Below, piece by piece: positions 7,285 through 32,000 of a DNA stretch of 32,000 bases. The translations under genes were made by a program, and so were the position numbers. The stretch lies in the NCBI RefSeq assembly GCF_000012805.1, contig NC_007484.1:480001-512000 (forward strand). The letters run 5' to 3'. The notes below the pieces were generated by a model. The model was not told where the DNA came from. It did no database searches and saw only the letters and a program-made list of their open reading frames with translations. Each line of letters opens with the position of its first letter. The stretch's first letter is position 1. This DNA comes from Nitrosococcus oceani ATCC 19707. Its GTDB lineage: Bacteria; Pseudomonadota; Gammaproteobacteria; Nitrosococcales; Nitrosococcaceae.

Positions 7285-7368
7285 ATCCCCTCTCTATAAA
7301 ACGGGAAAAAATCGTTGACATCATACTTGTAGCTGAAGTTATTTATTTTGCCAATCTGTAATAGACGC

Positions 7369-7524: not shown

Positions 7525-7600
7525 GAAGACATCTCTAGCTAAAGAGTGAAGATAGAGAGCCCTGGTGGGAATTCGTTGGCGCTGTTTGCAACTGTTTTAA

Positions 7601-7858
7601 TGGGGGGTTGTGCATGCCTATTGGTAGATGAGCAACTATTATCATTGGGTAATGGAAAAAGTTGACGGAACCTTATCGCAGGAGATATGGCAGGTGAAGA
7701 ACGTCTATACGCAGCGCTTTAATCATTAGGAAAATTATTTGCTGGGACTGGCGAGATAAGAACTCTTGAGTCTGCAGTGAGCCGGTATGGTTGGAAAACC
7801 GGAAGATTGGTTTTGGAGCAGTGACCAGCTGATGCTCGGAGAAATGGATGTGCTGTAG
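7601..7858 (+). pseudogene. Decayed REP-associated/IS200-like Y1 transposase-family gene
   Basis: A single frame reads WGVVHAYW*MSNYYHWVMEKVDGTLSQEIWQVKNVYTQRFNH*ENYLLGLAR*ELLSLQ*AGMVGKPEDWFWSSDQLMLGEMDVL*. The family pattern is ..HAYCLMSNHYHLLLE....LS..MR.LNG.YTQRFNRRH.R.GHLFQGRYK..LV..D.YLL.L.RYI.LNPVRAGMV..PEDWPWSS. There are four in-frame stops (7625, 7727, 7757, 7778) before the terminal one, and the GHLFQGRYK block is deleted. Confidence 0.55.
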
Positions 7859-8166
7859 TGGCTGGATATGGATTAGCTATTGGTCGTTTCAGTAGGCAGC
7901 GGAAAAGGGCGATTGAGTCTTACTGTCGATATAATCGTGGGCCAAGTTGCTCACGTTTTGCTATGAATTCGCGCTATGGTTTTCTCGCTCCCGGAGCCTA
8001 GGGTGGGGAGCACCCGAAGTCAAAGCGCATGGAGCGGTCAAGAACCCAAGACCAAAGTCGTTCCTTCGTCGAGGACTGCCGGGAAACACGAATTCTCCAG
8101 GCCGAGTTTTGTGGAAACAAAATTGAAATCAGCCATGACGAAACTCCAAGGTTGTGTTCCGTGGAA

Positions 8167-8192
8167 GCCGGAGGCGGTTACCCACCTCCGGC
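8167..8192 (-). terminator. Hairpin downstream of the 8237..9145 membrane-protein gene
   Basis: GCCGGAGG (8167-8174) pairs with CCTCCGGC (8185-8192), giving an 8-bp GC-rich stem and a 10-nt loop. It lies about 45 nt after the stop. There is no clear U-tract, so confidence is low. Confidence 0.3.
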
Positions 8193-8236
8193 GGCTTGGT
8201 GAGAGATTCAGTGATACCAAAATTCGGTTGTTCACG

Positions 8237-9145
8237 TTACGCTTTGGTAGGCGGAGGGGGGGGATTGCCGCGAAGATTAATCAAGCCATCCACGACTCCG
8301 ACCAGGGCCAGCCCAATGATAAAATGAGGGGGCAGCAGGAAAAGTCCCAGGTAGATAGGCAACAGCCACCATTGGGATAAGTTGCGAGCAGCCGTCATGC
8401 TATGCATGGCGGCTAATCCCTGGAACAAATACATCATGACCGCTACGATAAACAGATCGGTCAATATGTGGCCTCTCTCGCCGAGAGCTCCCGTAAGCAC
8501 CGGAGCAGAGAGAAGCACGGTGAGATAGGTGAGGATGCGGGGCAACCGTAACTCGTAGAACTCTTTTGCAAAGCCTCCAGGATTGTAGAGAAGGGATTGC
8601 CACCAGCGGGCCAGCAGAATGGTCAACATAAGATTAAGCCCAAAAATCATGGCCACCAGGCCGTTCATCAAGGTGAGCGCCCCTTCTTGAGCGATTTCCT
8701 CAACCGTGACGCCCTCGATATTTGCCCGGGTCATGGCCTGTTCAATCCATTGTTGCCACCAGGCGGTGACATCGCCCGTTAGCGCGTGCATGCTCACAAC
8801 AAACAGGGCGGAGAAGCCTCCAACCATTAACAGGGTGGAGGCTTGGGATTGCGTGATCCGCAAGATCCAACACCCTAGGGTATTGGGGAGCCATAATCCC
8901 AGCAGCAGGAGAAGGGATAAGTCTGCCCTTCCTGTGATGGCTAAAAATATCGCCGCCACCACTAATGTCGCCCCCGCGGTAATGCTCAGCCCTTCTTTCA
9001 TGCCGTGGCGCAAGGTCGTTAAGCCGACTGTGGCACCACTAAAGAGAGATAGGGGAGGGAGCGCAACAGCCAGCGCACCGAACAATCCCGCGGTAGCTAT
9101 CGCGTAGAGGCGGCCCCGCATAATAAACCGGGCAAATTCACGCAT
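8237..9145 (-). CDS. Polytopic inner-membrane protein, family not recognised
   Basis: 302 aa, hydrophobic throughout, with roughly 8 predicted helices by eye. AGGGAA lies upstream of the ATG. The C-terminus has a Pro-run (GNPPPPPTKA). Confidence 0.7.
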   Translation of the reverse strand: MREFARFIMRGRLYAIATAGLFGALAVALPPLSLFSGATVGLTTLRHGMKEGLSITAGATLVVAAIFLAITGRADLSLLLLLGLWLPNTLGCWILRITQSQASTLLMVGGFSALFVVSMHALTGDVTAWWQQWIEQAMTRANIEGVTVEEIAQEGALTLMNGLVAMIFGLNLMLTILLARWWQSLLYNPGGFAKEFYELRLPRILTYLTVLLSAPVLTGALGERGHILTDLFIVAVMMYLFQGLAAMHSMTAARNLSQWWLLPIYLGLFLLPPHFIIGLALVGVVDGLINLRGNPPPPPTKA

Positions 9146-9317
9146 GTTTTTATTCCCTATGATGTTTTTAGTCTTTAAAAGAAGCTTGCGTTATTCAGAT
9201 GTTTATTCGCCACCCCAGCAAACGGATGATATAAGATTGGAGTTTCGCCATGACTAGCTGCGGTTCGGTCCCTCCTCACCTGGCTAGTCTGACCCATTCG
9301 CGTTTCCCGGCGGTCCA

Positions 9318-9581
9318 CTATAATACTTCACGGCCAGTCCAGGCAGCCTTGTACGCAACCTGTCGCCGCGGTTCGTACAAGCCACCATCGGCGATGGCTC
9401 TGCTCAGGTGGCGATTGAGACGGATAGCGTTCAACGCCTCCATGCTCTCCCGGCACGCCTTTGTTCGTGCTTTCAGCGCCCAATTCCACACGAACCGGGC
9501 AGGGCCGAATTCAATGGTCCATTGCCGTTTCCGCTGGGGAATTGGGTAAAACCTGAATTTGTGGGCCCATTGCGTTACCAT
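9318..9581 (-). mobile_element. tnpB: Internally deleted TnpB (IS200/IS605 OrfB) relic
   Basis: MVTQWAHKFRFYPIPQRKRQWTIEFGPARFVWNWALKARTKA matches the TnpB N-terminus (AYKFRLYP..EQ...L...FG..RFV.N..L). It is fused directly to LNRHLSRAIADGGLYEPRRQVAYKAAWTGREVL, which matches the late RuvC region (LNRSI.DAGWG.F...L.YKA.W.GRE). It is about 87 aa, whereas I recall roughly 400 aa for intact TnpB. A 7-bp inverted repeat GACTAGC/GCTAGTC lies at 9252-9289 downstream. Confidence 0.6.
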
Positions 9582-9615
9582 ATTCCAATCGTAATACAAC
9601 AGGGCTTCAATAACA

Positions 9616-9768
9616 ATGGCAAGGGAATATTTAAATGTACGGGTTGATCCCGATCTCAAAAAGCAACTGCAAGCATTGGCTAAGAGGGAAAACCGAACCC
9701 TATCAAACTTGGTTGAAACCGTGCTGAGTAACTACGCAAAACGCGAATCCATGGCAAAACGCAAGTAA
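9616..9768 (+). CDS. Small ribbon-helix-helix (CopG/Arc-type) protein, orphan antitoxin-like
   Basis: Too short for the ORF track at 50 aa. My translation is MAREYLNVRVDPDLKKQLQALAKRENRTLSNLVETVLSNYAKRESMAKRK*. It has the typical RHH strand-helix-helix pattern. The Shine-Dalgarno sequence is weak. Confidence 0.5.
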   Translation: MAREYLNVRVDPDLKKQLQALAKRENRTLSNLVETVLSNYAKRESMAKRK

Positions 9769-9942
9769 TGTGGCCCTCGCCCTCGATGCTTCCCACTACG
9801 CGGCGCACGCTCGCCGAGGAGAGCATTATACGTCCCTGCATTTCTTCAATGAGTTTTTAACCTAGACGACTGTAAGTTTAGGTGATATTGCTAATGGGCA
9901 AGGGTGGACACCTAGAGGATAAGATTTTGGAGGAGCTTTCCG

Positions 9943-10914
9943 TTGATTTCAGAGAATGTTGGCCATGGACTTGAAATAACCACCCCTAACAGCTCCCAAT
10001 CCCCCCCGTGTATAGGGATTGCCTTGGGGGGTGGTGCCGCCCGCGGCTGGGCCCATATTGGCGTACTCCGTGCTTTGGCGGAAAAGGGCATTGTTCCCGA
10101 TGTCGTGGCGGGTTCCTCCATCGGGGCGTTGGTGGGGGCGGCTTATGGAGCCGGAACTCTGGATAACTTGGAACGATGGGTCCGTTCGCTAACATGGAGA
10201 GACACCGTTGGCTTCTTTGATATTCGGCTTCGTGGCGGGCTTATCGAGGGTAAAAAACTCTTTAAATTTTTGGCCCGGTATTTTCCCTATGAGGAAATTC
10301 AAGACTTGCCCATGCCTTTTGCAGCCGTGGCGACTAATCTGGAAAATGGCCGGGAAGTTTGGCTGCAACAAGGCTCTTTATTGGAGGCGGTGCGTGCTTC
10401 CGCCGCTTTACCCGGATTGTTGACTCCCGTAAACTGGAACGGTCATTGGTTAGTAGATGGCGGTTTGGTGAATCCAGTGCCGGTAAGCGTCTGCCGTGCT
10501 TTAGGTGCAACGCGAGTCATTGCGGTAGATCTCAATGCCGGTTTATTGGGCCGGCGGGTGGTGGTGCGCTCGGCGGATCAACCTCGCCTCCTGGCCGCGC
10601 CGAACCCCCGGGGCCTGGGCTCTGCCCTAACGCAAGCCTTATGGGCCAGTTTTGGGAGTGAATCCGAAGGGCAAAATGAGAGTCAAGGGATGGATATTCC
10701 TCCTTCCTTGCTTGATATCGTCGCCAATAGTATTAATATCATGCAAGTGCATATTACCCGCAGCCGTTTGGCGGGAGATCCGCCAGATCTATCCATCACG
10801 CCTCGTCTTAACGATCTCGCGCTGTTGGATTTTCACCGGGCGGAGGAAGCTATTGCCGAAGGGCAAGAAGCCGTGGCTCGGGTTCGGGCAGAACTCGCTA
10901 CCTTAATAAGGTAA
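9943..10914 (+). CDS. Patatin-like phospholipase (RssA-type)
   Basis: GIALGGGAARGWAHIGVLRAL (oxyanion GGGxxG), AGSSIGALVGA (GxSxG nucleophile) and LVDGGLVNPVP (catalytic DGG). The start is TTG, preceded by GGAGGAG at 9927-9933. Confidence 0.9.
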   Translation: MISENVGHGLEITTPNSSQSPPCIGIALGGGAARGWAHIGVLRALAEKGIVPDVVAGSSIGALVGAAYGAGTLDNLERWVRSLTWRDTVGFFDIRLRGGLIEGKKLFKFLARYFPYEEIQDLPMPFAAVATNLENGREVWLQQGSLLEAVRASAALPGLLTPVNWNGHWLVDGGLVNPVPVSVCRALGATRVIAVDLNAGLLGRRVVVRSADQPRLLAAPNPRGLGSALTQALWASFGSESEGQNESQGMDIPPSLLDIVANSINIMQVHITRSRLAGDPPDLSITPRLNDLALLDFHRAEEAIAEGQEAVARVRAELATLIR

Positions 10915-10950
10915 CCTCAGCGTTACCTCTCGACCGGGGAAGTCACAGGT

Positions 10951-11496
10951 ATGGGAGATAGTTTGGAGAAGATTCAGCTGCTTTACAGGGAAGCGGACCG
11001 TCTTTATACACAGTCTCAAGTGGAGGCGGCGTTGGATCGGCTCGCCGGGGAGATTACGGCGGAGCTGAGTCGTCATAATCCCTTGTTGTTATGTTGTATG
11101 GTGGGGGGGATGATTCCTTGCGGATGTCTTCTGCCGCGGCTTGATTTTCCGTTGCAGCTGGACTATATCCATGTGACCCGTTACCAGGGGGCTATTAAAG
11201 GTGGGGCATTACATTGGCTACGCAAGCCTAGGGTTTCACTTCGGGATCGAGTGGTACTGGTAGTGGACGATATTCTTGATGAGGGACACACTTTAACCGC
11301 CATCAGGGAATATTGCCAGGGAGAAGGTGCAAAGGTTTATAGTGCCGTGTTAGTGGATAAGCGTCATGGGCGCAAGCAAGGCGCTCCGGCGGATTTCGTG
11401 GGACTTGAAACCGGTGATCGCTACTTATTTGGATATGGTATGGACTATAAGGAATATCTCCGTAACGCGCCTGGAATCTACGCGGTAAAGGGGTGA
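10951..11496 (+). CDS. hpt: Hypoxanthine(-guanine) phosphoribosyltransferase
   Basis: 181 aa. PRPP-binding motif VVLVVDDILDEGHTLTAI and C-terminal GYGMDY..YLRN.PGIY. Confidence 0.9.
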   Translation: MGDSLEKIQLLYREADRLYTQSQVEAALDRLAGEITAELSRHNPLLLCCMVGGMIPCGCLLPRLDFPLQLDYIHVTRYQGAIKGGALHWLRKPRVSLRDRVVLVVDDILDEGHTLTAIREYCQGEGAKVYSAVLVDKRHGRKQGAPADFVGLETGDRYLFGYGMDYKEYLRNAPGIYAVKG

Positions 11497-11509
11497 TAAG
11501 GGTATTGTC

Positions 11510-12250
11510 ATGACAGATCTTGCAATTATCGGCGGCACCGGGTTGGCTACCTTAAAAAATTTAGAGGTTACCTGGCGGCAAGTGGTACATACTCCTTTTG
11601 GGGAGCCTTCCTGTCCACTCACCTATGGTCACCTGTGTGGCAAGGAAGTGGTTTTTTTGCCTCGCCACGGTTCCGGGCATACGATTCCGCCTCACAAGAT
11701 TAATTATCGCGCTAATCTCTGGGCTCTCAAAAAAACAGGTGCCACTCGGGTGATAGCTGTTGCCGCTGTGGGAAGTATTAGCACCGAGCTTGTTGTTAGC
11801 GAACTTGCACTTCCTGATCAGATTATTGATTACACTTGGGGTCGCGGGCATACTTTTTTTGAAGAAGACCTCAGAGGGGTTGTCCATGTTGATTTTACCT
11901 ATCCTTATTGCTCGAAATTGCGGAGCTTGCTGCTCAAGGCCGCAGCGGCGGCTGGGTTAAGCATGGCCGATTGGGTGACTTATGGTGCTACCCAAGGACC
12001 TCGCCTAGAAACGGCGGCGGAAATCGATCGTTTGGAGCGGGATGGCTGCCATGTGGTGGGAATGACTGGCATGCCCGAGGCTGCTCTTGCACGAGAATTA
12101 GAGCTAAGCTACGCCGCGATTGCGGTCATTGCCAACCAGGCAGCCGGTCGCAGTGAGAATCTGATTGAGATGGCGAGTGTCGAACAAAATCTTAATAGAG
12201 GGATGGAGAAAGTCCGCCGGCTACTAGAGCAGCTCATCCCTCTGGCGTGA
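11510..12250 (+). CDS. S-methyl-5'-thioadenosine/thioinosine phosphorylase (PNP family 2)
   Basis: 246 aa: IIGGTG ... FGEPS ... FLPRHGSGHTIPPHKINYRANLWALKKTGATRVIAVAAVGS ... GPRLETAAEI ... VVGMTGMPEAALARELEL.YA. It sits directly after hpt, which I recall as a common purine-salvage arrangement. Confidence 0.9.
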   Translation: MTDLAIIGGTGLATLKNLEVTWRQVVHTPFGEPSCPLTYGHLCGKEVVFLPRHGSGHTIPPHKINYRANLWALKKTGATRVIAVAAVGSISTELVVSELALPDQIIDYTWGRGHTFFEEDLRGVVHVDFTYPYCSKLRSLLLKAAAAAGLSMADWVTYGATQGPRLETAAEIDRLERDGCHVVGMTGMPEAALARELELSYAAIAVIANQAAGRSENLIEMASVEQNLNRGMEKVRRLLEQLIPLA

Positions 12251-12664
12251 TCTTTCTCCAATCGCTTCCCGGGAAATAATAGCACGGAAGCGTTATTGTT
12301 CGAGTATGCATTATTTGATCTATATGCCTGACACGGCTCGCACCTCGGCGTTTATGATGAAAGCGCTGGTGGGATGCCGCTTTTTCTAAGCGCCTTCGAG
12401 AAGGATTTAAAGCGTTAACTTTTATCCTCATCCTATTCGATAGCTGCCTCTTCCCACTCACAGCGCTACTTAACGCCCGTCCAGTGTGTGCTAGAAATTA
12501 TTTTGTGCTTGCCATTTCGCAGGCGAGATTGACCAGCACGACACAGGCCGTATTCTTCTCGATATTTTTTCCGGAATACTTATTTATTAAAGCTGGATTT
12601 CATCTTTAACATGAACTCATAATTTGGGTAAATAATGTTCTAGGACAGACGGAATTCAGAAGCT

Positions 12665-13315
12665 ATGGGAGGGAATATTTTTGTGAATAATAGAGACTAT
12701 TATGGATTATATGGACTTATTTTAGGGGGATTGGTTGACGTCACTATCTTCTTGCAGTCAGCTAGCGCGGATGTTAGAGCGGTGCTTATTAAGGAGGGAG
12801 GATTCGTTGAGTCACTGTCGGCTATCGGCTATTTTGTTGGCGCGATACTCGTTATTCTTATAAGAAGAAAGTTTATTTACTATACTTATGCGGCATTTAT
12901 TTTGATTCTTTTTGGGTTAAGGGAACTGGATTTCCATAATCGCTTTACCACGATGAGTGTGTCTAAAATTAAATTTTATGTGAGTCCTGAGGTGCTCCTA
13001 TTAGAGAAAGTGATTGCTATAGCTATAGTCTTGCTGCTGCTATATATTCTGATTCGCTTAATAAAAACTCATTTTAATGGCTTGATAAATGCCATAAAAA
13101 AAGGAGAACCCTCGGCTTTAGGCGTCGGTGGGGGGATATTGCTGATATTGATAACTAAAACCCTGGATGGTTTATCGAGAAAGCTCGCAAGCGTGAATAT
13201 CATTGTTAGCGATAATATGGCAAAGTTGGTGGAGACCGTAGAAGAAGTTTTTGAATTGGGTATTCCCCTTATGTTTATAATTGCAGCGGCGGCGCGTTTC
13301 CGAACGGCCCGATAG
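12665..13315 (+). CDS. Hypothetical membrane protein in an AT-rich segment
   Basis: 216 aa with several hydrophobic helices and no family recognised. The start codon is uncertain. Composition is visibly more AT-rich than the neighbours. Confidence 0.45.
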   Translation: MGGNIFVNNRDYYGLYGLILGGLVDVTIFLQSASADVRAVLIKEGGFVESLSAIGYFVGAILVILIRRKFIYYTYAAFILILFGLRELDFHNRFTTMSVSKIKFYVSPEVLLLEKVIAIAIVLLLLYILIRLIKTHFNGLINAIKKGEPSALGVGGGILLILITKTLDGLSRKLASVNIIVSDNMAKLVETVEEVFELGIPLMFIIAAAARFRTAR

Positions 13316-13347
13316 AATAGCGGCTACTCTATTTAAAATTTATACCA

Positions 13348-13986
13348 ATGTCTTCCATTCTTTACTATGCCCACGATCCCATGTGTAGCTGGTGTTGGGC
13401 ATTTAGTCCAGTTTGGCAAGAAACCCACGCGGCTCTTGCTGAAAGTATTCCGATCCAATATGTATTGGGGGGGCTGGCACCCGATACGAATCAGCCCATG
13501 CCTTTTGAGCTGCAACGGAAAATCCAAGGGATTTGGAAAACGATAAAAAAACAGGTGCCGGGGACAACGTTTAATTTTGATTTCTGGACCCAATGCCAGC
13601 CACGCCGTTCTACTTATCCAGCTTGCCGTGCGGTGATTGCCGCGACAAAGCAGGAAGCCTCCTGTGGGGAAACCATGATCCTGCTAATCCAGCAAGCCTA
13701 CTATCTTCAGGCGCGTAACCCTTCTGATGATAGTACCCTTATGGAATTGGCCATGGAACTAGGGTTGGACCAGCAACGTTTTATGGCTGATTTAAATTCA
13801 GCGGCCACCCAGGAAGAGTTGTTTCGGCAAATACAATTCACGAGGCGGATCGGCGCCCAGGGATTTCCCAGTTTAATTCTCCATCAGGCAGGGAGATATC
13901 ACCCCCTCCGTTTCAGCTACCAGGATGCTTCCACAACCTTAATACAAATTAAGGAACTATCGGATGCGCAGCAAGCTGGGGGTTAA
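13348..13986 (+). CDS. DsbA-family thioredoxin-fold protein
   Basis: 212 aa with an N-terminal CxxC (YAHDPMCSWCWAF). The overall pattern is that of the DsbA-like predicted disulfide isomerases. Confidence 0.8.
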   Translation: MSSILYYAHDPMCSWCWAFSPVWQETHAALAESIPIQYVLGGLAPDTNQPMPFELQRKIQGIWKTIKKQVPGTTFNFDFWTQCQPRRSTYPACRAVIAATKQEASCGETMILLIQQAYYLQARNPSDDSTLMELAMELGLDQQRFMADLNSAATQEELFRQIQFTRRIGAQGFPSLILHQAGRYHPLRFSYQDASTTLIQIKELSDAQQAGG

Positions 13987-14038
13987 GGTAACCCGCGGCC
14001 TTGCAAAAATTATTGTGCGTTCTTAAAAAGAGATTCAA

Positions 14039-14914
14039 TCATCCCGCCCGCGTACTACCGCCTAGCAGGGTTAATACCTCGCCAGTGACATAACTGGAAT
14101 CCGCTGTTGACGCAAAATAAACATAAGCAGGGGCGATTTCCTCGGGTTGAGCGGGTCGCTGATAGGGAGTTTGAGCGCCAAATTGGCTGACTTCCTCGGC
14201 GGGCCTATCTGCTGGGTTGAGTGGTGTCCAGACCGGACCTGGAGATACGCAGTTGACACGAATCCTGGCCTCTACTAGCTTTTGGGCGAGGGATTTGGTG
14301 AATGCATGGATAGCGCCTTTGGTAGAAGAATAATCCAGCAGCGCGCCGTTGCCCTCAAGGCCAGTAATTGACCCCGTATTAATAATCGCGCTTCCCGATT
14401 TTAAGTGGGGTACCGCCGCTTTTACCATATAAAAATAGCCATAGATATTGGTTTTGAAGGTGTGATCCCATTGCTCTTCCGTAAGTTCGTCTAGTTCCTT
14501 CCGGTGCTGCTGATAGGCGGCATTATTCACTAAAATATTTAGCTGGCCGAATTCCTGGATAGTTTGCTCCACGGCGCTTCGGCAGAAGGCGCTGTCACTC
14601 ACATCACCACAGACCAATAATGCTTTCTGTCCTTCGGCTTCAACTGCCTGCCGGGTTTCTTGGGCATCGGTATTTTCTTCGGCAAGATGGATGATGGTGA
14701 CATTTGCACCTTCCCGGGCAAACAGGACGGCAACCGCCCGTCCAATGCCTGAGTCGCCCCCTGTAATTAAGGCCACTTGCCCTTGTAATTTATTCGCACC
14801 TTTATATAAGGGAGCTGAATAACGGGGCTGGGGCTGTAATTCGGATTCTTGCCCAGGTCTTTCTTGATGCTGTTCTGGAAAAGGAGGTTTTGGCTCCTGG
14901 TTTTCATTTGTCAT
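14039..14914 (-). CDS. SDR-family oxidoreductase (YghA / general-stress-protein-39-like)
   Basis: 291 aa: TGGDSGIGRAVA (TGxxxGxG), NNAA, and YSSTKGA (YxxxK). The polar N-terminal extension is typical of this subgroup. Confidence 0.9.
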   Translation of the reverse strand: MTNENQEPKPPFPEQHQERPGQESELQPQPRYSAPLYKGANKLQGQVALITGGDSGIGRAVAVLFAREGANVTIIHLAEENTDAQETRQAVEAEGQKALLVCGDVSDSAFCRSAVEQTIQEFGQLNILVNNAAYQQHRKELDELTEEQWDHTFKTNIYGYFYMVKAAVPHLKSGSAIINTGSITGLEGNGALLDYSSTKGAIHAFTKSLAQKLVEARIRVNCVSPGPVWTPLNPADRPAEEVSQFGAQTPYQRPAQPEEIAPAYVYFASTADSSYVTGEVLTLLGGSTRAG

Positions 14915-15277
14915 GCAGGTGAATCCTCTGGAAGTAATGGGAGAATAGTTTTGAAGACATAGTGTAATTTCATTACATTTTTCACCTAGTTCAATTTTTT
15001 ATAACAGTAAAAAAATAGCGAAAATATTTATCGATTAATTTAAGTGTAGGTATACGAAAAACATTTGCAAGGCGGCATTTCCCTTAAAATAATGAGAGAT
15101 GTACGAAACCTGGAATAGGAGATGTCCTTAAAATCCTCTCTTACTGACGACAATTAGAAGATAATTTTATTTTTACTTTACGGGGTGAAAATTTCTCCTA
15201 ATAACCTATCTTTATTAAGATAGATGGGGCTGTTCTAATTACCCCCTTATATACACTATCGAAAAGAAGGAGATATC

Positions 15278-15508
15278 ATGCCTTACCAAAGCTTAAGGGA
15301 ATTGCCTGATTCGGTTAAAGATAATCTACCCAAGCATGGACAGGAAATTTATAAAGAAGCCTACAATAATGCTTGGGAACAGTACGCCGATCCGGCTAAG
15401 CGTCGGGGTGACGAATCCCGGGAAGAAGTCTCCCATAAAGTTGCCTGGGCGGCCGTAAAGAATGAGTATGAGAAAAAAGATGATCGCTGGGTGCGCAAAA
15501 ATAAATAA
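15278..15508 (+). CDS. chaB: ChaB-family protein
   Basis: 76 aa: MPYQSLRELPDSVKDNLPKHGQEIYKEAYNNAWEQY ... SHKVAWAAVKNEYEKKDDRWV. AAGGAG lies at 15267-15272. Confidence 0.85.
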   Translation: MPYQSLRELPDSVKDNLPKHGQEIYKEAYNNAWEQYADPAKRRGDESREEVSHKVAWAAVKNEYEKKDDRWVRKNK

Positions 15509-15783
15509 TTAGATGGTTATCTACCTTCCTAGAAACTCCATGCTTACCATCGCTCCTGGATTTGGCTCAGCTATTCTTGTATTTGGATTTTATAGCTATA
15601 AAAACCCATACAGATCTGGAAAAGGGCCTCGGATTGCCGGTGATTAAAACTTGATTGGGTTATCTCCGCAATAAGGACAGGAAAATACTAAATACTTCCT
15701 TTATTATCGCGACTAGCTTCCTGCTTAAAAGCGAATGAAATGTTAATGAGCAATGGCGAGTGGTTATTTTTGCATTAACCCAA

Positions 15784-16167
15784 TTAAGGAGAGTCGATGA
15801 GTCCCGCAAGGAGCAAAATTAATATGAGTAATCCAGCAATAAAGAGAGATAAGGTAATAAGAACAACCGACCAGATAGGCAATCCAGGGAGTCCCTCTTC
15901 CTTTAAAGCGCGGAAAGTCACGTAATAGCCCCAGAAACTAAGGATATGAATAGCCATGCCAATCACAATCAGGATGACGCCGGCGGCATAGACCGCCCAC
16001 TTCGGCTCGGCTTCCGCCAGCAGTTTAATGTCTGCAAAGCCTAGAGCTATCGCCGCGATTCCCGTGCGCATCCAAGCGCTAAACGTTCGCTGCTCCGCGA
16101 GTAAGTTGCGGTGGAATGCTAACTCGGTACGGTCAGTCGCTAATTGTTGTTTACTTTTTTCTGGCAT
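15784..16167 (-). CDS. DUF202 (YidH-family) small membrane protein
   Basis: 127 aa. The signature is DRTELAFHRNLLAEQRTFSAWMRTGIA, followed by three hydrophobic helices. Confidence 0.8.
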   Translation of the reverse strand: MPEKSKQQLATDRTELAFHRNLLAEQRTFSAWMRTGIAAIALGFADIKLLAEAEPKWAVYAAGVILIVIGMAIHILSFWGYYVTFRALKEEGLPGLPIWSVVLITLSLFIAGLLILILLLAGLIDSP

Positions 16168-16225
16168 GCTTGATTGTGGGAAGTAAATCTATTTAAGTTA
16201 ACGGATAAAATTCTACTGCCTTGCC

Positions 16226-16606
16226 TTATTCGCTAGCATAGGCCATAGTTGACAACAACGCCAATTCTGCTTGGCGTGAATCCAGCCGGGTATGCTGCAC
16301 CACAATAGGCACATTAGATTGAATGATACTGGCGTAATCCGTGTCTTTTGGAATAGGCTCCGGATCATTCAGTTCATTGAAACGGACATGGCGGGTACGC
16401 CGAGCGGGGATGGTAAATTGGTAAGGGCCGATGGGTTCCCGATCGCTAAAGTAAACGGTGATAGCTATTTGGGCTTCTTGGTCGGTAGCATTAAGGATGC
16501 ATGCCGTTTCATGGCTGGTCATTTGGGGCGCTGGCCCGGTGCTGCTGGGGGGGATATAGCCTTCGGCGATAGCCCAGCAAGTTTTCCCAATGGGCGTGCT
16601 CATCAA
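16226..16606 (-). CDS. Sensory-rhodopsin-transducer (ASRT) family protein
   Basis: 126 aa: IGKTCWAIAEGYIPP...SHETACILNA.D..A...ITVYFSDREPIGPY.FT.PARRT.HVRFN.LNDPEPIP.DTD.ASIIQSNVPIVVQHTRLDSRQAE.ALLSTMAY. It aligns almost residue for residue with the Anabaena ASRT sequence as I remember it. Confidence 0.8.
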   Translation of the reverse strand: MMSTPIGKTCWAIAEGYIPPSSTGPAPQMTSHETACILNATDQEAQIAITVYFSDREPIGPYQFTIPARRTRHVRFNELNDPEPIPKDTDYASIIQSNVPIVVQHTRLDSRQAELALLSTMAYASE

Positions 16607-16663
16607 TCTACCTCCTAGGGTAAAAATATTTAAAACTTGGAATCAGGATTTCTCCCTTTCCGT

Positions 16664-19618
16664 TCACCATTTTCGTTCCGGATAAGCGCCACGGGTTCCT
16701 CGTTGGCCTTCCCGGAGGGCCATCAGCAAAATTTGCGATAAATGCAGCGCAGAACGATCGGTCGTTTGAGTGATTTGTTCCTGACAGGCAAAACCATCGG
16801 TGATAATCAAGGTATCCTTTTCAGCCGCGCGCACGGCTGGCAGCAGTACCCGCTCTCCGATTTTAAGCGATAGCTCATAATGATCCGCCTCGAAGCCAAA
16901 AGGACCCGCCATGCCGCAGCAACCAGAATCCAGCCAATGATACTGAAGTCCCATCCGTTCCAGAATTTGCTTTTCCCCTTCCAGGCCGATCACCGCGTGG
17001 TGGTGGCAATGGGCATGAACCACGGCCTTGCGGTGGAGTAGTGGCGGTTCATAATTTTTCTGTTGGGCTAAAAACTCGCCCAGCATAAAGGTCTGTTGGC
17101 TGATGCGTCGTGCTCGATCATCCTTGGGAAACAGCTTGATTAATTCATCTCTAAAGGCGGCGACGCAGGACGGTTCTAGACCCACGATGGGAACTCCTTG
17201 AGAGACTTCCGGGGTCAGGGCATCGAGCAAGTGGGTGAGCCGCTTTTTGGCTTTATCCAACATGCCCCAGGCATAGAGAGGGCGGCCACAGCAAAGGGCA
17301 GGCGTGGGCACGATCACCTGGAAGCCGCCAGCTTCCAGCACTTCTACGGCAGCCACCAGAATTTCCGGGTGCAAATGGTTGTTAAACGTATCGGGCCACA
17401 GGAGCACCTTATGGCCCCCTGGGTTGCCGGGGCGATGTGGCCGTTGTTGGTACCAGCGTTTAAAGGTCTGAGGCGCAAAGCGGGGTAGCCGCCGTTCCTG
17501 GGCAATACCGGCGGCGAATTTGACTACATGGGAGAAAATAGGGGTTTGAGAGAAAAAATTAACCGCCCAAGGCGCTAGAGCAGCTAACCGGCTCGCCTCA
17601 TAAATCCCGCCCATGGAATAAGCCACCCGCGGCCGCAGCCGGCCTTGAAAATGATGATAGTTAAACTCGGCCTTGTAGGTGGCCATATCCACATCTACTG
17701 GGCAGTCACTAAGGCACCCCTTGCAGGATAGGCAAAGATCCAAGGAATCATAGACCGCTTTGCTTTTCCAGCCTGCCGTTAGGGGCGCATCCTCATGGGT
17801 CATGCCGTAGATCATTTCATAGAGCAAGCGAGCCCGGCCACGGGTGGAATGCATTTCCTCTTTCGTGGCCATGTAGCTCGGGCACATCACGCCCTGGTGG
17901 TTACGACGGCATTCGCCTACCCCCACGCAACGTAAGGAAGCTTTGGAAAAGCTGCCGTCGTCTTCGGAAAAGGCAAAGACGGTCTTGAGCGTAGGGGGGC
18001 GGAAATCAGCGCCCAGCCGTAAATTGGAATCCCGTGGATAAGGATCAACCACCTTGCCTGGATTCATGTGATTTAGCGGGTCCCAGAGGGTCTTAAACTC
18101 TCGGAAGGCTTGGATCAATTCCTCCCCATACATTTTTGGCAGCAGATCGGCGCGGGCTTGGCCATCGCCATGTTCTCCCGACAGGGAGCCGCCGTAGCTC
18201 AAGACCAGATCCGCGGCATCATGGGTGAAGGCTTTAAAATTTTTAATGCCTTCCTTGGTAATAAGATCGAAATCGATCCGGACGTGAATACAACCATCGC
18301 CAAAATGGCCATAGAGGGAACAGTCATAATGGTAGCGTTTCAGCAACTGACGGAAGTCCCGTAGATACGGCCCCACTTTCTCCGGAGAGACAGCGGCATC
18401 CTCCCAGCCGGGCCAGGTATCTTCCTCGCCCCGTAGATGCGCCGTGGCTCCTAAGCCCGCTTTCCGTATTTTCCAAATACGTTCTTCTTCCTCGGGATCA
18501 TCGAAGAGTTTCATATTCGGTGGATTGTCCGATTGCTTAAGAGCCTGCATCAGGCGCTTTGCTTTTTCGTCTGCCTCGGCCTTTGTTTCACCGCCAAACT
18601 CCACGAGCAACCAGCCGCCTCCCTCCGGTAGCAACGCCCGGCCCTTGGGATACATATGCTCTTTTTTCATGTACTTGAGCAGCAGATTGTCCATGCCTTC
18701 CAGCCCTATGGGAGCATACTCGAGAATTTGAGGTATATGATCGCCGGCGGTGTAAACATCGGGGTAACCGAGCACCACCACGGTACGACTAGGGGGACTT
18801 GGAATGAGGCACAGATCAGCTTGGAGCACGGTTACACAGGTGCCTTCAGTGCCTACTACTAAAGCCCGGGCTACGTTAAAACCGTTCTCGGGAAGCAATT
18901 CGTCCAAATTGTAGCCAGAGACTCGACGTGGTATTTTGGGGTAGCGTTGCCGGATCAAGTCGGCGTACTTATCCCGGATCGCTTTCAGGCCCGAATAGAT
19001 TTCACCTCGTCTTCCGCCCGTCCGAATAATCTGTTCCAGTTTCTCTTCCGAAGTAGGACCGACCCACAGGCGCAGACCATCATAGGTGAGGATTTCCAAG
19101 GCGTTGACATTATCGGCGGTGCGGCCAGCCATGATGGAGTGAACGCCGCAGGAGTTGTTGCCGATCATACCCCCTAGGCTGTTATGATCGTGGGTTGAAG
19201 GATCGGGGCCGAAAGTAAGGTGGTGTTGTTCCGCTTCGTCGCGCAGGTCGTCCAGCACGCAGCCGGGCTCCACCCGTGCCCGGCGGCGTTCGGGATCGAG
19301 TTCAAGTACCCGCCGCAAATATTTGGACATATCCATGATGACCGCCGTGTTACAGCATTGCCCCGCCAAACTGGTCCCGCCCCCTCGCGCGAGGACCGGC
19401 GCCTGGTGCTCCCGGCAAACCGCCATGGTTTCGATAATGTCTTCCCGATTTTGAGGAACCACCACACCGATGGGAACTTGGCGGTAGTTGGAGCCATCGG
19501 TAGCGTATAAAGCGCGGCTGCCATGATCAAATCGCACCTCGCCCTGAATTCGCTGGCGCAGGTCGGCTGCCAGTGTTTCCGCGGCTGCCGGGGGGAAATT
19601 ATTCGTTCGGGAAGCCAT
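16664..19618 (-). CDS. Fused FAD-binding (PCMH-type) / 4Fe-4S / CCG-domain oxidoreductase, YdiJ-like
   Basis: About 984 aa from the ATG at 19618 (the track ORF extends to 19675). It has an FAD-binding domain (ARGGGTSLAGQ). A ferredoxin-type cluster motif is present (CLSCKGCLSDCP, plus CVGVGECRR). Two C-terminal Cys-rich GlcF/HdrD-like repeats follow (CCGRP and CCGMAGPFG). Confidence 0.9.
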   Translation of the reverse strand: MASRTNNFPPAAAETLAADLRQRIQGEVRFDHGSRALYATDGSNYRQVPIGVVVPQNREDIIETMAVCREHQAPVLARGGGTSLAGQCCNTAVIMDMSKYLRRVLELDPERRRARVEPGCVLDDLRDEAEQHHLTFGPDPSTHDHNSLGGMIGNNSCGVHSIMAGRTADNVNALEILTYDGLRLWVGPTSEEKLEQIIRTGGRRGEIYSGLKAIRDKYADLIRQRYPKIPRRVSGYNLDELLPENGFNVARALVVGTEGTCVTVLQADLCLIPSPPSRTVVVLGYPDVYTAGDHIPQILEYAPIGLEGMDNLLLKYMKKEHMYPKGRALLPEGGGWLLVEFGGETKAEADEKAKRLMQALKQSDNPPNMKLFDDPEEEERIWKIRKAGLGATAHLRGEEDTWPGWEDAAVSPEKVGPYLRDFRQLLKRYHYDCSLYGHFGDGCIHVRIDFDLITKEGIKNFKAFTHDAADLVLSYGGSLSGEHGDGQARADLLPKMYGEELIQAFREFKTLWDPLNHMNPGKVVDPYPRDSNLRLGADFRPPTLKTVFAFSEDDGSFSKASLRCVGVGECRRNHQGVMCPSYMATKEEMHSTRGRARLLYEMIYGMTHEDAPLTAGWKSKAVYDSLDLCLSCKGCLSDCPVDVDMATYKAEFNYHHFQGRLRPRVAYSMGGIYEASRLAALAPWAVNFFSQTPIFSHVVKFAAGIAQERRLPRFAPQTFKRWYQQRPHRPGNPGGHKVLLWPDTFNNHLHPEILVAAVEVLEAGGFQVIVPTPALCCGRPLYAWGMLDKAKKRLTHLLDALTPEVSQGVPIVGLEPSCVAAFRDELIKLFPKDDRARRISQQTFMLGEFLAQQKNYEPPLLHRKAVVHAHCHHHAVIGLEGEKQILERMGLQYHWLDSGCCGMAGPFGFEADHYELSLKIGERVLLPAVRAAEKDTLIITDGFACQEQITQTTDRSALHLSQILLMALREGQRGTRGAYPERKW

Positions 19619-19818
19619 ACACGTCTGAGGTTCCTTATAATCTATACATCTCTCGCTATCCAAATAATAGTCCAATAGTCCATCGTCATTGTATTATTGT
19701 CTTCTTCCCCGCCATTCAGGATAAGGAGGAGGCGCTGCCTCATCCTACCAGTCCTAGCGGTATGGTTTGATATCAACTAGTATTTAATCAACCCTAGTTA
19801 CAGACAAGGAAAGAATCA

Positions 19819-28975: not shown

Positions 28976-29752
28976 TTATTCATTAGAAGATGGAATGGTT
29001 AATTTCGTCCCTACCAGCAAATCCCTGGGATCTTTAATTTTGTCCTTGTTCGCGTTATAAATTAGGCGCCACTTATTGGCATCACCGTACGCATGGTGGG
29101 CAATGTCGGCAAGGGTATCGCCCTCTTGGACGGTGACTGTTTTTGGAGTCGAGCTTCCGTTGTCTTGTTGCTGAAATTGTGATCTTTCGTTTGTTGATTG
29201 TTGATCAGTAGATTGGCTACCCGCGGTAGAAGATTGTTGCTGCTCCTTCAGGGAACTGGTATCGGTCACCTGCGCGTTGGCGGGCCAATTATCTTTATTG
29301 AAAGAAGGCGCATTCGCCAATTCTTCCGGCGTTGCGTCCATGACTAGGGTATAACTTTCCTCTTCAGGAGAAACCTGAATTAAATCCCAGGAAATAGCGA
29401 GCTTTTTTCCTCCCACGCCGAGGGTTTCGCCATGGGATAAGACCGCATATCTCACTTGACCTGATTTATCAATGACTAAATCGCTGATCTTGCCTAATTT
29501 CTTATTTTGCTTGTTTTTAACTTCCTTGCCGATTATTCCCGTGGCTTTGTAAATGTTTGGATAGGAGCCGGTAATACGTAAACTTTGGTCAGATTCCTGG
29601 CTCTGATGAGTGGTTTGGTTATCGGCGCGTTGTTGTTGCGACTCTTCATCCGCCAATAAGGCCGCGCTTGAAAATATCATTGATAAGATAGTTAAGGAGG
29701 CAAAAATTCTATCTTTACGGAGTAATGAAATAGAAAAAATAAGTTTGTTCAT
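28976..29752 (-). CDS. Secreted PRC-barrel plus LysM two-domain protein
   Basis: 258 aa. The N-terminal segment is hydrophobic and signal-like. The PRC barrel reads IIGKEVKNKQNKKLGKISDLVIDKSGQVRYAVLSHGETLGVGGKKLAISWDLI. A Q/S-rich linker follows. The C-terminal LysM reads VTVQEGDTLADIAHHAYGDANKWRLIYNANKDKIKDPRDLLVGTKLTIP. Confidence 0.8.
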   Translation of the reverse strand: MNKLIFSISLLRKDRIFASLTILSMIFSSAALLADEESQQQRADNQTTHQSQESDQSLRITGSYPNIYKATGIIGKEVKNKQNKKLGKISDLVIDKSGQVRYAVLSHGETLGVGGKKLAISWDLIQVSPEEESYTLVMDATPEELANAPSFNKDNWPANAQVTDTSSLKEQQQSSTAGSQSTDQQSTNERSQFQQQDNGSSTPKTVTVQEGDTLADIAHHAYGDANKWRLIYNANKDKIKDPRDLLVGTKLTIPSSNE

Positions 29753-29987
29753 AATGATAATTTCCTTTCAAGGTTCTATAAAAAATAGCGGAGTTAGTTT
29801 AATAAGCGTATTTCCCGAGAAGAAATTTTCTATACGGGAAAACCCTTAATAGCCGTATTTAAAAATGCTTCTTTGGAAAGACTCGCTCTTCTAAATAAAG
29901 CACTTCAGCAAATAAAAAGTAGATTTATTTTGCTCGCCCGTCTTTAATTTTCAACTACGCCGTTCCTTAACGGGGCTAAGTACAAAA

Positions 29988-30305
29988 ATGATTTTGCAGA
30001 CTTACGCCATTGTGGCGCTTGTTGGATTATCTGTATTGGGGTTGTCATTGCTCGCGGCAGCTTTCTGGCGTCCTCCCTCCAGGCCATTGCGGGCGCCCGA
30101 TTCTTGGAAGAAATACCGTTTCGGTTTTGCCACTTATTCGCTTATTTTTGTGGCCTTCGATATGGAAATGATTTTTATGTATCCCTGGGCGGTAGTCTTT
30201 GCAGAGATTGGATTGAAAGCGTTTCTCGATATGCTGGTATTTATTGCGTTGCTGGGCGGTGGCATTACTTATGTGTGGGGAATGGGCGGATTGAAATGGG
30301 AGTGA
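29988..30305 (+). CDS. nuoA: NuoA/ND3-like membrane subunit (divergent)
   Basis: 105 aa with three hydrophobic helices. The core motif FVAFDMEMIFMYPWAVVF corresponds to F..FDVE..FL.PWA. The C-terminus ITYVWGMGGLKWE corresponds to Y.W.KG.L.W. Confidence 0.75.
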   Translation: MILQTYAIVALVGLSVLGLSLLAAAFWRPPSRPLRAPDSWKKYRFGFATYSLIFVAFDMEMIFMYPWAVVFAEIGLKAFLDMLVFIALLGGGITYVWGMGGLKWE

Positions 30306-31228
30306 TGACAAGCGTATTAGCCACCGTGGCCGCGCTCTTGGCGGGGGTAGGGCTTACGGCCTGGCTGGAGCCTAAGTGGCTTGGCGCTAACGGCGAGCGG
30401 GGACCGGCAAGTCCCGTGAAAATTGCCGCCGATGTGCGGTTAACTCAGCCCGATCCCTGGCTCTATTACGCCGGGCCGGTAATCGCGTGTATGGGCGTGA
30501 GCTGGGCCATGGTCTGCATTCCCTTTAGTCCTTCCCTGGTAGGCAATGATGTCAATATCGGGCTTTTTTATTTCATCGTTGTGGTTGATTTCGTAGTGCT
30601 GGGTATTGCCTTGGGCGGATGGGGTGCCAACACCCCCGATAGTGTTGAATCCTGTTATCGGGCTATCGCCCAATTGATTGCCTATGTGATTCCCCTCGGG
30701 CTAGCGATTATCGGTCCGATTATGATGGCCCGCTCCTTATCGACGGTCCACATTGTTGAGGCGCAGGCCAACGCCCAGCTTTGGTATCTCATCCCCCAGC
30801 CAATTGGTTTTATTCTTTATGTGATATCGGGATTGATGCAAGTGTATCGGGCGCCTTTTCTGGAACCCTTTGCCGATCCCATTGGCCGGGGTGTGCTAAG
30901 CGTGTTTGGCGGCTGGAAGGGTTTGCTCTGGCGGCTCGCCTTGTCAGGGGTGCTTTTTGTGGTCGCCGCCATGGGAGCAGTCATTTTTCTCGGCGGCTAT
31001 AGCGGGCCGTTCCTGCCAGGGCCGGTTTGGATGGTCATCAAGACCGTGGGGCTAATGGTCCTCATGATTTGGTTGGGGCGCCAGGTGCGGTTATTGAGCG
31101 TGGCTGAAATGCTCAGCCTGTCATGGAAAGTACTTATCCCGGTAGGTTTATTGAACGTGCTGCTAGTGGGCGGATTAATTTTGTTGGGTGCCGGTCAAGA
31201 CCCCTTTTCTCCTGGAGGAGGCCACTGA
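30305..31228 (+). CDS. nuoH: NuoH/ND1-like membrane subunit (highly divergent)
   Basis: 307 aa from ATG 30305, which overlaps the nuoA-like TGA (an alternative ATG lies at 30296). It is collinear with NuoH: ...VNIGLFYFIVV...LGGWGANTPDS...IAQLIAYVIPLGL...YRAPF...IFLGGYSGPFLPGPVWMVIKT...WLGRQVRLLSVAEMLSLSWKVLIPVGLLNVLL. The last block corresponds to the R...PR.R.DQ.M...WK.LLP..L.N motif. Confidence 0.75.
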   Translation: MTSVLATVAALLAGVGLTAWLEPKWLGANGERGPASPVKIAADVRLTQPDPWLYYAGPVIACMGVSWAMVCIPFSPSLVGNDVNIGLFYFIVVVDFVVLGIALGGWGANTPDSVESCYRAIAQLIAYVIPLGLAIIGPIMMARSLSTVHIVEAQANAQLWYLIPQPIGFILYVISGLMQVYRAPFLEPFADPIGRGVLSVFGGWKGLLWRLALSGVLFVVAAMGAVIFLGGYSGPFLPGPVWMVIKTVGLMVLMIWLGRQVRLLSVAEMLSLSWKVLIPVGLLNVLLVGGLILLGAGQDPFSPGGGH

Positions 31229-31229
31229 G

Positions 31230-32000
31230 ATGGAAGTGAGTCCGGTGCTGCAATGGGCCGCCTTTGGGATCTTCGCTTTTATCAGCATCGCCGGAGCCTT
31301 GGGCATGGCTACGACCATGAGCATGTTTCGCAGCGGTATTTTTCTGATGGCTTCATTTATTGGGGTGGCGGGATTGTTTATTTTATTGCTTGCGGACTTG
31401 CTGGCCCTGTTGCAGATCATGATGTACATCGGCGGTATGTTGGTGATGATTCTGTTCATGCTGCTGTTCAGCGGCGATCCCGGCGGTGGGATGATGAGCA
31501 CTCATATGCGGCTTCGGGGTCCTGAGTGGTTCTTTAGCCTGGGTTTGGCCCGCTCCCCATCCGGAACGGATGGGAATAACGCTAATGATTCCTCGGATAA
31601 GGAAGAAGACCAGCGTGATCAGGCCAGGGACAGCCACCAAGAGGAAGGGGAGAAGGAGGAGAGTAACGACATGTCCATGTTTACCCCTGCTAAGCGGGGG
31701 GCCGCTGGGCTGGCGCTAGGTATCGGCGTTTTACTGATCGCGCTGCTGCTGTGGCGGCCCCATTGGGCGGTGGTGGCGCAAATGCCGGATCCGGACTCAC
31801 CCCGCCGTATTGGCCACTTGCTCATGGATAAATACATGATCGCTTTTGAAGGCGCGGGGCTGCTTATTCTACTGGGTATTTTCGGCGCCGTTCTGCTGCA
31901 ACGCCCTGGCAAATATCCTGACTCGGCCCACCGGGAGGAACTCCGGGCCGCGGTAGAGGATGCGCCCGCCCCGGTGAAAACCGATCCACTTAAACCCTTA
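31230..32000 (+). CDS. nuoJ: NuoJ/ND6-like membrane subunit with a long acidic insertion; 3' end beyond the window
   Basis: Not in the ORF track because there is no stop before the window end. My translation begins MEVSPVLQWAAFGIFAFISIAGALGMATTMSMFRSGIFLMASFIGVAGLFILLLADLLALLQIMMYIGGMLVMILFMLLFSG. The middle reads ...SGTDGNNANDSSDKEEDQRDQARDSHQEEGEKEESND. The end reads ...IGHLLMDKYMIAFEGAGLLILLGIFGAVLL... The blocks A.FL...Q...Y.G....LF.FV.M and L...Y...FE.....LL.A..GA fit NuoJ. The ATG lies 1 nt after the nuoH-like stop. Confidence 0.7.
   Translation, partial: MEVSPVLQWAAFGIFAFISIAGALGMATTMSMFRSGIFLMASFIGVAGLFILLLADLLALLQIMMYIGGMLVMILFMLLFSGDPGGGMMSTHMRLRGPEWFFSLGLARSPSGTDGNNANDSSDKEEDQRDQARDSHQEEGEKEESNDMSMFTPAKRGAAGLALGIGVLLIALLLWRPHWAVVAQMPDPDSPRRIGHLLMDKYMIAFEGAGLLILLGIFGAVLLQRPGKYPDSAHREELRAAVEDAPAPVKTDPLKPL

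Follow-up and report, generated by a model that had tools for sequence, protein, structure and literature searches.

The window analysed here, a 32,000-nucleotide stretch of Nitrosococcus oceani ATCC 19707 (contig NC_007484.1, positions 480,001–512,000), ends in three back-to-back genes whose products resemble NuoA, NuoH and NuoJ of complex I (NDH-1), the last of them running off the window (Table 1). We read the downstream genes on N. oceani contig BJWX01000014.1 (GCA_007990675.1; locus L001, where the window coordinate equals the L001 coordinate plus 20304), on which the nuoJ-like open reading frame (ORF) is complete (L001 10926–11723, 265 aa; stop at window-equivalent 32027). The full operon comprises eight ORFs, Noc_0474–0481, in the order A, H, J, K, L, a split-off L tail, M and N, with a nuoK-like ORF of 104 aa, a nuoL-like ORF of 548 aa, a tail of 111 aa, a nuoM-like ORF of 491 aa and a nuoN-like ORF of 470 aa. 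Pfam annotation of this contig (PF00507, PF00146, PF00499, PF00420 and PF00361 three times) identifies homologues of all seven membrane subunits and no NuoB, C, D or I; unrelated small ORFs follow N. Noc_0474–0481 encodes a complete complex-I membrane arm and nothing else. The initial annotation of the window had suggested a complex-I-derived membrane module lacking every peripheral-arm gene, which the gene content of the full contig supports; its alternative, a rearranged operon with Q-module genes further downstream, is refuted because the contig continues with K, L, L tail, M and N and holds no nuoB, C, D or I.

The gene arrangement as such is already known and is not a discovery, because Stein et al. 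2013 tabulated Noc_0474–0481 as 'NuoAHJKLLMN (C I-membrane arm)' (PMC3772326), a gene list (A-H-J-K-L-L-M-N) that matches our contig, and partial operons have been reported elsewhere. New here are the distribution of the family, its purifying selection, the remodelled docking loops, the replaced channel residues, the metal signatures and the metal-gene neighbours. The link of the family to heavy-metal handling is largely unreported: a literature search for a described copper-linked complex-I-like antiporter returned only a remark on Marinobacter atlanticus, in which a seven-gene nuo-like cassette interrupts a copper-resistance operon and is co-expressed with it (Eddie et al. 2021, PMC8233155).

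Direct reading of the gene junctions agrees with the initial annotation, in that an ATG at 30305 overlaps the nuoA-like TGA (30303–30305) and the nuoH-like stop (31226–31228) is followed by the nuoJ-like ATG at 31230; the peptides it quoted (RAPFLEPFADPIGRGVLSVFGGWKG, AYV, YRFG and FDME) are likewise all present in the translations. Starting at 30305, the NuoH-like protein would have 307 aa; the real start is more likely the ATG at 30296, giving a 10-nt overlap with the nuoA-like gene, because homologues and the NCBI protein (310 aa) begin with 'MGV...'. The NuoH-like protein (P0001) is 100% identical to the N. oceani ATCC 19707 protein named NADH dehydrogenase subunit H. Tested against the NCBIfam equivalog cut-offs, the three proteins score far too low to pass as the canonical subunits (NuoA, 57.7 against 145 bits; NuoH, 143.6 against 399 bits; NuoJ, 68.8 against 174 bits).

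The 111-aa ORF, which has no Pfam hit, aligns end to end with the C-terminus of an unsplit 639-aa NuoL-like protein of a Rhodopseudomonas plasmid (E=1e-10) and carries the C-terminal motif of E. coli NuoL, and because of these two features we take it to be the lateral helix plus transmembrane helix (TM) 16. A novel subunit was also considered and rejected, as the segment is the NuoL C-terminus and is in frame with L elsewhere. L and tail form a single in-frame gene in about 40 other loci, and the frame change occurs in N. oceani and locus L023 only; in N. oceani, the tail ORF has its own AGGAGG-N4-TTG start.

Inverted repeats (I1–I3) lie in the AT-rich intergenic region upstream of the nuoA-like gene, and the GC content is 0.417 over positions 29001–30000. 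Imperfect palindromes in this region, TTTCCCGAGAAGAAA/TTTCTATACGGGAAA and AGCAAATAAAA-N6-TTTATTTTGCT, may be operator sites. A promoter scan gave only weak sigma-70-like matches, none convincing on the + strand within the intergenic gap, and a terminator scan gave nothing convincing. Transcripts of all eight ORFs were 2–12-fold lower after an ammonium pulse than in starved cells (PMC3772326).

A profile-guided scan of one genome per species retrieved 63 related loci, 45–80% identical, and the order A-H-J-K-L-M-N is found in every locus long enough to show it. The A-H-J adjacency that the initial annotation had pointed out thus recurs in other genomes, and it is not a chance arrangement, because the order is identical across related loci. 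Hosts span about ten phyla overall and include Chloroflexota, Bacteroidota/Ignavibacteria, Deinococcota, Methylobacterium and other Alphaproteobacteria, Beta- and Gammaproteobacteria, Actinomycetota (metagenome-assembled genomes, MAGs; L029, L035 and L054), Acidobacteriota, a cyanobacterium and Desulfobacteraceae. A tblastn search with E. coli NuoB, CD, E, F, G and I gave no match within 10 kb in 62 of the 63 loci; the sole exception is L011 (Bacteroidota MAG, 1–16752), in which the cluster lies on the same strand as a complete, canonical nuo operon of E. coli type and directly after it. The cluster is also carried by a conjugative Rhodopseudomonas plasmid, a mobilizable Methylobacterium plasmid and a Deinococcus plasmid. 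An exhaustive search with a NuoJ-like profile returned 59 representatives at E≤1e-30, compared with 4471 NuoJ-like proteins at E≤1e-3, with a clear score gap between the family and canonical NuoJ. The family is compact, well delimited and horizontally mobile, and the module is self-contained. Some hosts carry several copies: Deinococcus marmoris has two identical ones on two contigs, Methylobacterium nonmethylotrophicum two different ones, and M. variabile three partial matches (locus groups L024 and L025; L038 and L043; L061, L063 and L064).

Ratios of non-synonymous to synonymous substitution (dN/dS) lie mostly at 0.05–0.2 for all seven genes across nine lineage pairs, reaching up to 0.56 for J in one near-identical pair. 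These low ratios, together with the joint regulation of the N. oceani transcripts (PMC3772326), indicate that the seven genes are functional and under purifying selection.

To compare individual residues, we aligned the proteins to the E. coli subunits; the best Protein Data Bank (PDB) match of the NuoH-like protein is E. coli NuoH (7nyh_H), with an alignment that starts only at residue 69. NuoH Glu157, which has been called invariant (PMC8357420), is Val in 24 of 24 family sequences, and D213, E216 and E228 of the loop between TM5 and TM6 are replaced in the same 24, with E218 and E220 variable; N. oceani has D213L, E216F, E218D, E220P and E228V. K140, Y141 and E71 are also lost, and the N-terminal TM1-2 loop, about 26 residues shorter than in E. 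coli, cannot be aligned and has lost its motif. Conversely, the family has gained invariant NuoH acids, the Asp of VVVDF and the Glu of PFLEPF. NuoA has a TM1-2 loop shortened by about 13 residues relative to E. coli, with E51, S52 and D55 deleted and K46 changed to Leu, Ile or Val, while D79 and E81 (D58 and E60 in N. oceani) are kept in all 26 sequences, flanked by Met (FDMEMIFM). The alignments thereby uphold what the initial annotation had read from the N. oceani proteins alone, namely the loss of most of the NuoH acidic loop, the change of the SYE block to AYV, and the loss of a NuoA Glu (YRFG) with FDxE retained.

Replacements extend into the remaining subunits. NuoJ has E55Q in 35 of 36 sequences and keeps Y59, G61 and V65; NuoK has R25Q and keeps E36 and E72; NuoN has both E133Q and K217E in 37/37; and NuoL has K399E in 39/43 and keeps E144 and K229. 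All proton-path residues of NuoM are canonical. The pattern of TM5 Glu, TM7 Lys and TM12 Lys or Glu is full in NuoM and partial in NuoL, and its TM5/TM7 pair is replaced in NuoN. Such family-wide replacements have been fixed under selection and do not represent decay. Among the contacts between peripheral and membrane arm listed by Sazanov 2023 (PMC10212512), every one is gone, because all are deleted or replaced in our residue table (NuoA K46, E51, S52 and D55; NuoH E71, K140 and Y141; NuoK R25; NuoJ E84).

The acidic insertion of about 70 aa that had been noted in the NuoJ-like protein is real and occupies residues ~84–151, between TM3 (58–81) and TM4 (156–174). An AlphaFold2 model (overall predicted local distance difference test score, pLDDT, 63) has residues 103–151 disordered (pLDDT <50). 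In N. oceani, this stretch reads DPGGGMMSTHM, then an acidic core rich in Ser, Asn, Asp and Glu, then DMSM. We compared loop composition in 37 sequences, N. oceani and 36 relatives, among which N. oceani is an outlier: the loop is rich in His, Met, Asp and Gly in most of the relatives, for example HEGHGHEGHEHEGHGHEGH and MDHGDMDMGDM. Insertion length ranges from 40 to 115 residues across the family. The L006 loop holds the Pfam heavy-metal-binding domain (HMBD) PF19335 (52.7 bits), and one to six HMBDs are found in the loop or at the C-terminus of P0121, P0123, P0126 and P0226 as well as of nine of the ten long family representatives. Because of the homology to complex I, these HMBD and loop segments would be placed on the cytoplasmic, peripheral-arm side.

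Also, the NuoJ-like core is 9.8% Met, compared with 3.3–3.4% in two canonical NuoJ, and Met occupies 15 of 92 conserved columns. A Met ladder runs along TM3 (M64, M65, (Y66), M70, M73, M77) and is followed by D83-P-G-G..M88, M89 and M93. Met residues also stand beside the retained carboxylates of NuoA (FDMEM) and NuoK (MxxMGIE and IEM). Met is thus enriched in J and mildly in A but not in H, K, L, M and N, which led us to reject a general enrichment across the complex.

The remodelled docking surface bears on the idea that the cluster is an alternative membrane arm onto which the peripheral arm of the host's canonical complex I docks, forming an isozyme, in keeping with the treatment by Stein et al., who loosely name Noc_0474–0481 'forward Complex I' (PMC3772326). 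Canonical nuo operons, which the initial annotation missed, do exist elsewhere in the N. oceani genome: there are two complete ones, of clades B and E (PMC4453560), either of which could donate a peripheral arm (PMC4453560, PMC3772326), and the placement of the L011 cluster immediately after a canonical operon is also in favour. Such docking would have to take place with all listed contacts gone, with NuoH E157, the acidic TM5-6 loop and the TM1-2 motif lost, and with an insertion of 40–115 residues, in some members containing folded HMBDs, at the docking site; moreover, the module crosses phyla with different complex I clades and travels on plasmids, at 55–70% identity. We consider this reading very improbable.

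For N. oceani only, a decaying, functionless remnant of a horizontally acquired module has to be weighed as well, since NuoL is frameshifted into two ORFs here and in L023 only, the His/Met loop is replaced by low-complexity acidic sequence, and the operon has no metal context. Against this, all family-invariant residues are intact in N. oceani, the 15 conserved Met of NuoJ among them, the L-tail ORF has a start of its own, the NuoH-like protein is 88% identical in N. watsonii, and the eight ORFs are transcribed and co-regulated (PMC3772326), which makes a mere remnant highly improbable.

Within 10 kb of the cluster, 34 of the 63 loci encode a CopA P1B-ATPase, a CusA/CzcA RND pump, HMBD, DUF326, DUF305, YHS or Met-rich proteins, and copper or heavy-metal neighbours recur in eight or more lineages. 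In Deinococcus, a DUF305 gene precedes the cluster by 23 nt; DUF305 also adjoins the upstream side of the cluster in a cyanobacterium, in Pseudolabrys and in the Rhodopseudomonas plasmid, the last of which has DmeF, metal repressors and CzcA ahead of it. Independent cases with metal neighbours are plasmid pBAL398.3 and the metagenomic contig L071, which has CopA divergently upstream and DUF305 downstream; the metagenomic contig L072 has no metal genes. In L072, from one metagenomic genome, the nuoA-like and nuoH-like genes are fused into a single 402-aa gene. All-against-all clustering of flanking ORFs revealed no universal non-Nuo partner gene, the commonest families being CopA, cytochrome c, CusA, two-component systems, DUF326 and DUF305.

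The cytochrome c is relevant to a different reading, in which the pump is redox-driven and its partner has gone unrecognised; the energy might come, for instance, from the neighbouring cytochrome c or from copper redox chemistry. A membrane-anchored class-I cytochrome c (~184 aa, PF13442) adjoins the cluster within 60–2400 nt in about 12 loci from several phyla (L009, L018, L020, L022, L023, L031, L033, L049, L058, L059, L060 and L066), and in Ignavibacteria/Bacteroidota it directly follows the nuoN-like gene on the same strand. A redox role was the speculation of Eddie et al. for Marinobacter (PMC8233155), and a sister variant of the cluster, L073, keeps a degenerate NuoB-NuoD fusion beside SCO1/SenC. 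These points are outweighed by the lack of any redox gene conserved family-wide or adjacent to the cluster in N. oceani, which also speaks against the 'non-canonical redox partner' proposed initially, and by the location of the cytochrome c, which would be periplasmic, opposite to the former docking site. The NuoB-like part of the L073 fusion matches E. coli NuoB weakly (E=0.056), and no cluster-binding cysteines were seen in it on reading. A redox-driven pump is, in our view, distinctly improbable.

In addition to SCO1/SenC, a BlaR/BlaI-type pair neighbours L073, whose proteins are 42–54% identical to those of N. oceani. Its NuoH keeps E157 and several loop acids, and its NuoJ is already Met-rich and has Q55. 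Because L073 mixes a degenerate B-D fusion, a kept E157 and a Met-rich NuoJ, it suggests a series from a complex-I-like ancestor through a redox-dead Q-module remnant to clusters with no Q-module.

From the gene content, conservation, residue replacements, metal-binding domains and metal-gene association observed above, we infer assembly, transport, substrate, direction and energy coupling as follows. The cluster may encode a stand-alone cation exporter driven by the proton-motive force (pmf), most likely for Cu(I)/Ag(I), a proposal that we favour tentatively and put a little short of an even chance. More specifically, a membrane arm that shed its redox part could have been repurposed as a pmf-driven exporter of Cu(I)/Ag(I), or soft metals, with NuoJ as the metal-handling subunit and metal-binding domains at the former docking site; we regard this version as possible, its chance being clearly below even. 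A, H, J, K, L, M and N would assemble into a stand-alone, redox-independent complex acting as a secondary transporter of the Mrp kind. Protons would move inward through the canonical antiporter-like L and M, with N modified, and this flow would drive a cation outward via the remodelled 'E-channel' region of H, A, J, K and N. For the family, the substrate would most likely be a soft metal cation, Cu(I) or Ag(I), caught in the cytoplasm by the His/Met-rich or HMBD-bearing NuoJ TM3-4 loop, where the peripheral arm usually docks, and then passed along the Met ladder of NuoJ TM3 to those carboxylates of NuoA and NuoK that are flanked by Met. The substrate in N. oceani may differ from that of the family and is less certain, because the loop is acidic and no metal genes are near, though the Met-rich core is intact.

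Several points weigh against metal export. For every member, transport, metal binding and assembly are deduced from sequence; the metal association could be hitch-hiking on stress or resistance islands; and His-rich loops fit Zn, Ni or Co equally well. In about 20 of the 63 loci, the scored metal families are all absent. Of the three metal signatures, N. oceani has the Met-rich core but not the other two: no metal genes were found in the flanks of its operon, and the core of its loop contains 1 His, 0 Met and 13 Asp+Glu. The frameshift that splits NuoL in N. oceani and L023 could be early decay, and the Marinobacter cassette could be a case of the sister variant, which has a NuoD-like gene. 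We identified no periplasmic exit for the metal ion, nor is the canonical E-channel known to open to the periplasm.

Mrp and complex I have a common antiporter-like fold, so that the cluster might instead be an Mrp-like Na+(K+)/H+ antiporter serving salt or alkaline pH homeostasis, with regulatory or incidental His/Met loops. The acidic, non-thiophilic N. oceani loop and flanks free of metal genes are in line with this, as are the retained buried carboxylates (NuoA D79/E81 and NuoK E36/E72) and the Glu that NuoN has gained in place of K217. N. oceani lives in the sea, and a partial nuoAHJKLMN operon, its NuoJ listed as a hypothetical protein, has been flagged as acquired by marine actinomycetes and proposed as a marine-adaptation trait of Salinispora, Streptomyces and Kocuria, a reading due to Penn and Jensen (PMC3314556, PMC6676996). 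However, an alkali-cation antiporter leaves unexplained the family-invariant NuoJ Met ladder, the tandem HMBD insertions and the copper/heavy-metal neighbours in so many lineages, and many hosts come from soil or freshwater (Methylobacterium, Deinococcus, Microflora Danica soil MAGs). We judge it unlikely.

Around the operon, the N. oceani flanks contain PRC-barrel/LysM, SDR, TPP-enzyme, MR_MLE, DUF2254 and GMC-oxidoreductase genes. PRC-barrel proteins are encoded on both sides, and in the upstream one the barrel is combined with a LysM domain and a long linker rich in Gln and Ser. Elsewhere in the window lies a type I restriction-modification locus, whose HsdR-like gene appears split, an 872-aa ORF ending inside the EcoR124_C domain and a 163-aa ORF carrying the remainder. 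Between the genes for a DUF202 membrane protein and a 1003-aa FAD-oxidase/4Fe-4S/CCG-domain protein, the window also encodes a homologue of the Anabaena sensory rhodopsin transducer, an odd find for an ammonia oxidiser in which no rhodopsin is in view.

Table 1 Coordinates of the membrane-arm operon, its variants and further features (window positions unless a locus is named).
Feature	Position	Strand	Remarks
AT-rich intergenic region, from divergent PRC-barrel/LysM gene to nuoA-like gene	29753–29987	+	presumed promoter/operator region
Imperfect palindromes 5' of nuoA-like gene	29808–29882; 29907–29934		
nuoA-like gene (Noc_0474)	29988–30305	+	105 aa; TGA 30303–30305; PF00507, E=2.5e-19
nuoH-like gene (Noc_0475)	30296–31228	+	310 aa from ATG 30296; PF00146, E=1.6e-44
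nuoJ-like gene (Noc_0476)	31230–32000	+	runs off window end; PF00499, E=2.9e-23
Hydrophilic insertion, NuoJ TM3-4 loop	31479–31682	+	residues about 84–151
nuoL-like ORF and L tail	L001 12118–13764, 13748–14083 (window-equivalent 32422–34387)		past window end; 548 aa + 111 aa, tail in +1 frame
Sister variant	L073 3724–13499		A, 494-aa NuoB-NuoD fusion (PF00346), H, J with six HMBDs, K, L, M, N
Fused nuoA-like/nuoH-like gene	L072 8796–10004		402 aa
Upstream PRC-barrel protein gene	28976–29752	-	
Downstream PRC-barrel protein gene	L001 20517–20906	-	
Type I restriction-modification locus	607–4992	-	
HsdS-like gene	607–1911	-	
163-aa ORF, remainder of EcoR124_C domain	1904–2395	-	
Locus of sensory rhodopsin transducer homologue	15784–19675	-	PF07100, E=8e-58

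Behind the locus stands a genuine, uncharacterised family that is an unusual complex-I derivative. The central question about complex I is how its E-channel and NuoH drive antiporter-like subunits that lie far from them, and a naturally occurring, conserved membrane arm working without quinone chemistry would offer a tractable test of which elements long-range coupling needs: here both the 'invariant' Glu157 of NuoH and the Glu/Lys pair of NuoN are replaced, whereas NuoM is canonical and NuoL mostly so. If the exporter reading is true, the cluster would be a new class of metal efflux system and a natural 'coupling-only' model of the complex I membrane domain. If the metal link is true, it would represent an unrecognised heavy-metal resistance determinant on plasmids and resistance islands in about ten phyla, and the ammonium repression of the operon would be worth revisiting in ammonia oxidisers, which depend on copper enzymes. 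The genes are everywhere annotated as 'NADH-quinone oxidoreductase subunit', inflating complex I counts in genome surveys.

The seven membrane subunits all have homologues in complex I, and their relative order, NuoL lateral helix and TM16 included, is the canonical one, with E. coli-type NuoH (PDB 7nyh_H) the closest match; NuoM and most of NuoL keep their proton-path residues, and NuoK E36/E72, NuoA D79/E81 and NuoJ Y59/G61 are also kept. Unlike complex I, the N. oceani cluster has no NuoB, C, D, I, E, F or G, and it shows NuoH E157V, losses in the TM5-6 and TM1-2 loops, a shortened NuoA loop, NuoJ E55Q, NuoN E133Q/K217E, NuoL K399E and a Met-rich NuoJ, joined in relatives by a metal-binding loop. 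With Mrp (CPA3), the cluster shares several antiporter-like subunits tied by a lateral helix, NuoK- and NuoJ-like small subunits and the absence of a redox module, and both are presumed secondary transporters. Mrp differs in having MrpE/F/G and no NuoH or NuoA homologue, whereas the cluster keeps H and A and, in N. oceani and relatives, includes no additional small conserved genes of the MrpE/F/G kind; its sequences are Nuo-derived, with best Pfam, NCBIfam and PDB matches to Nuo proteins. Metal-binding features like those described here are not known in Mrp. Ehr/Mbh-type complexes differ in their NuoB- and NuoD-like proteins, which are absent from the cluster, only the sister variant L073 having a degenerate B-D fusion.

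Among published loci, the 'NuoAHJKLLMN' entry of Stein et al. is the same locus as Noc_0474–0481, and the Salinispora, Streptomyces and Kocuria operons, likened here by gene names, have the same seven genes with a hypothetical NuoJ; those papers give gene lists, read as a proton/sodium pump or 'forward complex I', with no residue analysis, metal link or distribution (PMC3772326, PMC3314556, PMC6676996). The Marinobacter cassette, likened here by its published description, similarly groups seven nuo-like membrane genes, one annotated as 'hypothetical', between cop genes with which they are co-expressed (PMC8233155); because its annotation, nuoADHJKL, includes D, it may be the sister variant that keeps a degenerate NuoB-D protein, as L073 does. 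Finally, the Cu(I)/Ag(I) exporters CopA (P1B-ATPase) and CusCBA (RND) offer a possible functional analogy, with Met relays, His/Met-rich or HMBD capture domains and residence on the same islands; they share no homology with the cluster, in which the energy would come from the pmf via complex-I-type antiporter subunits.

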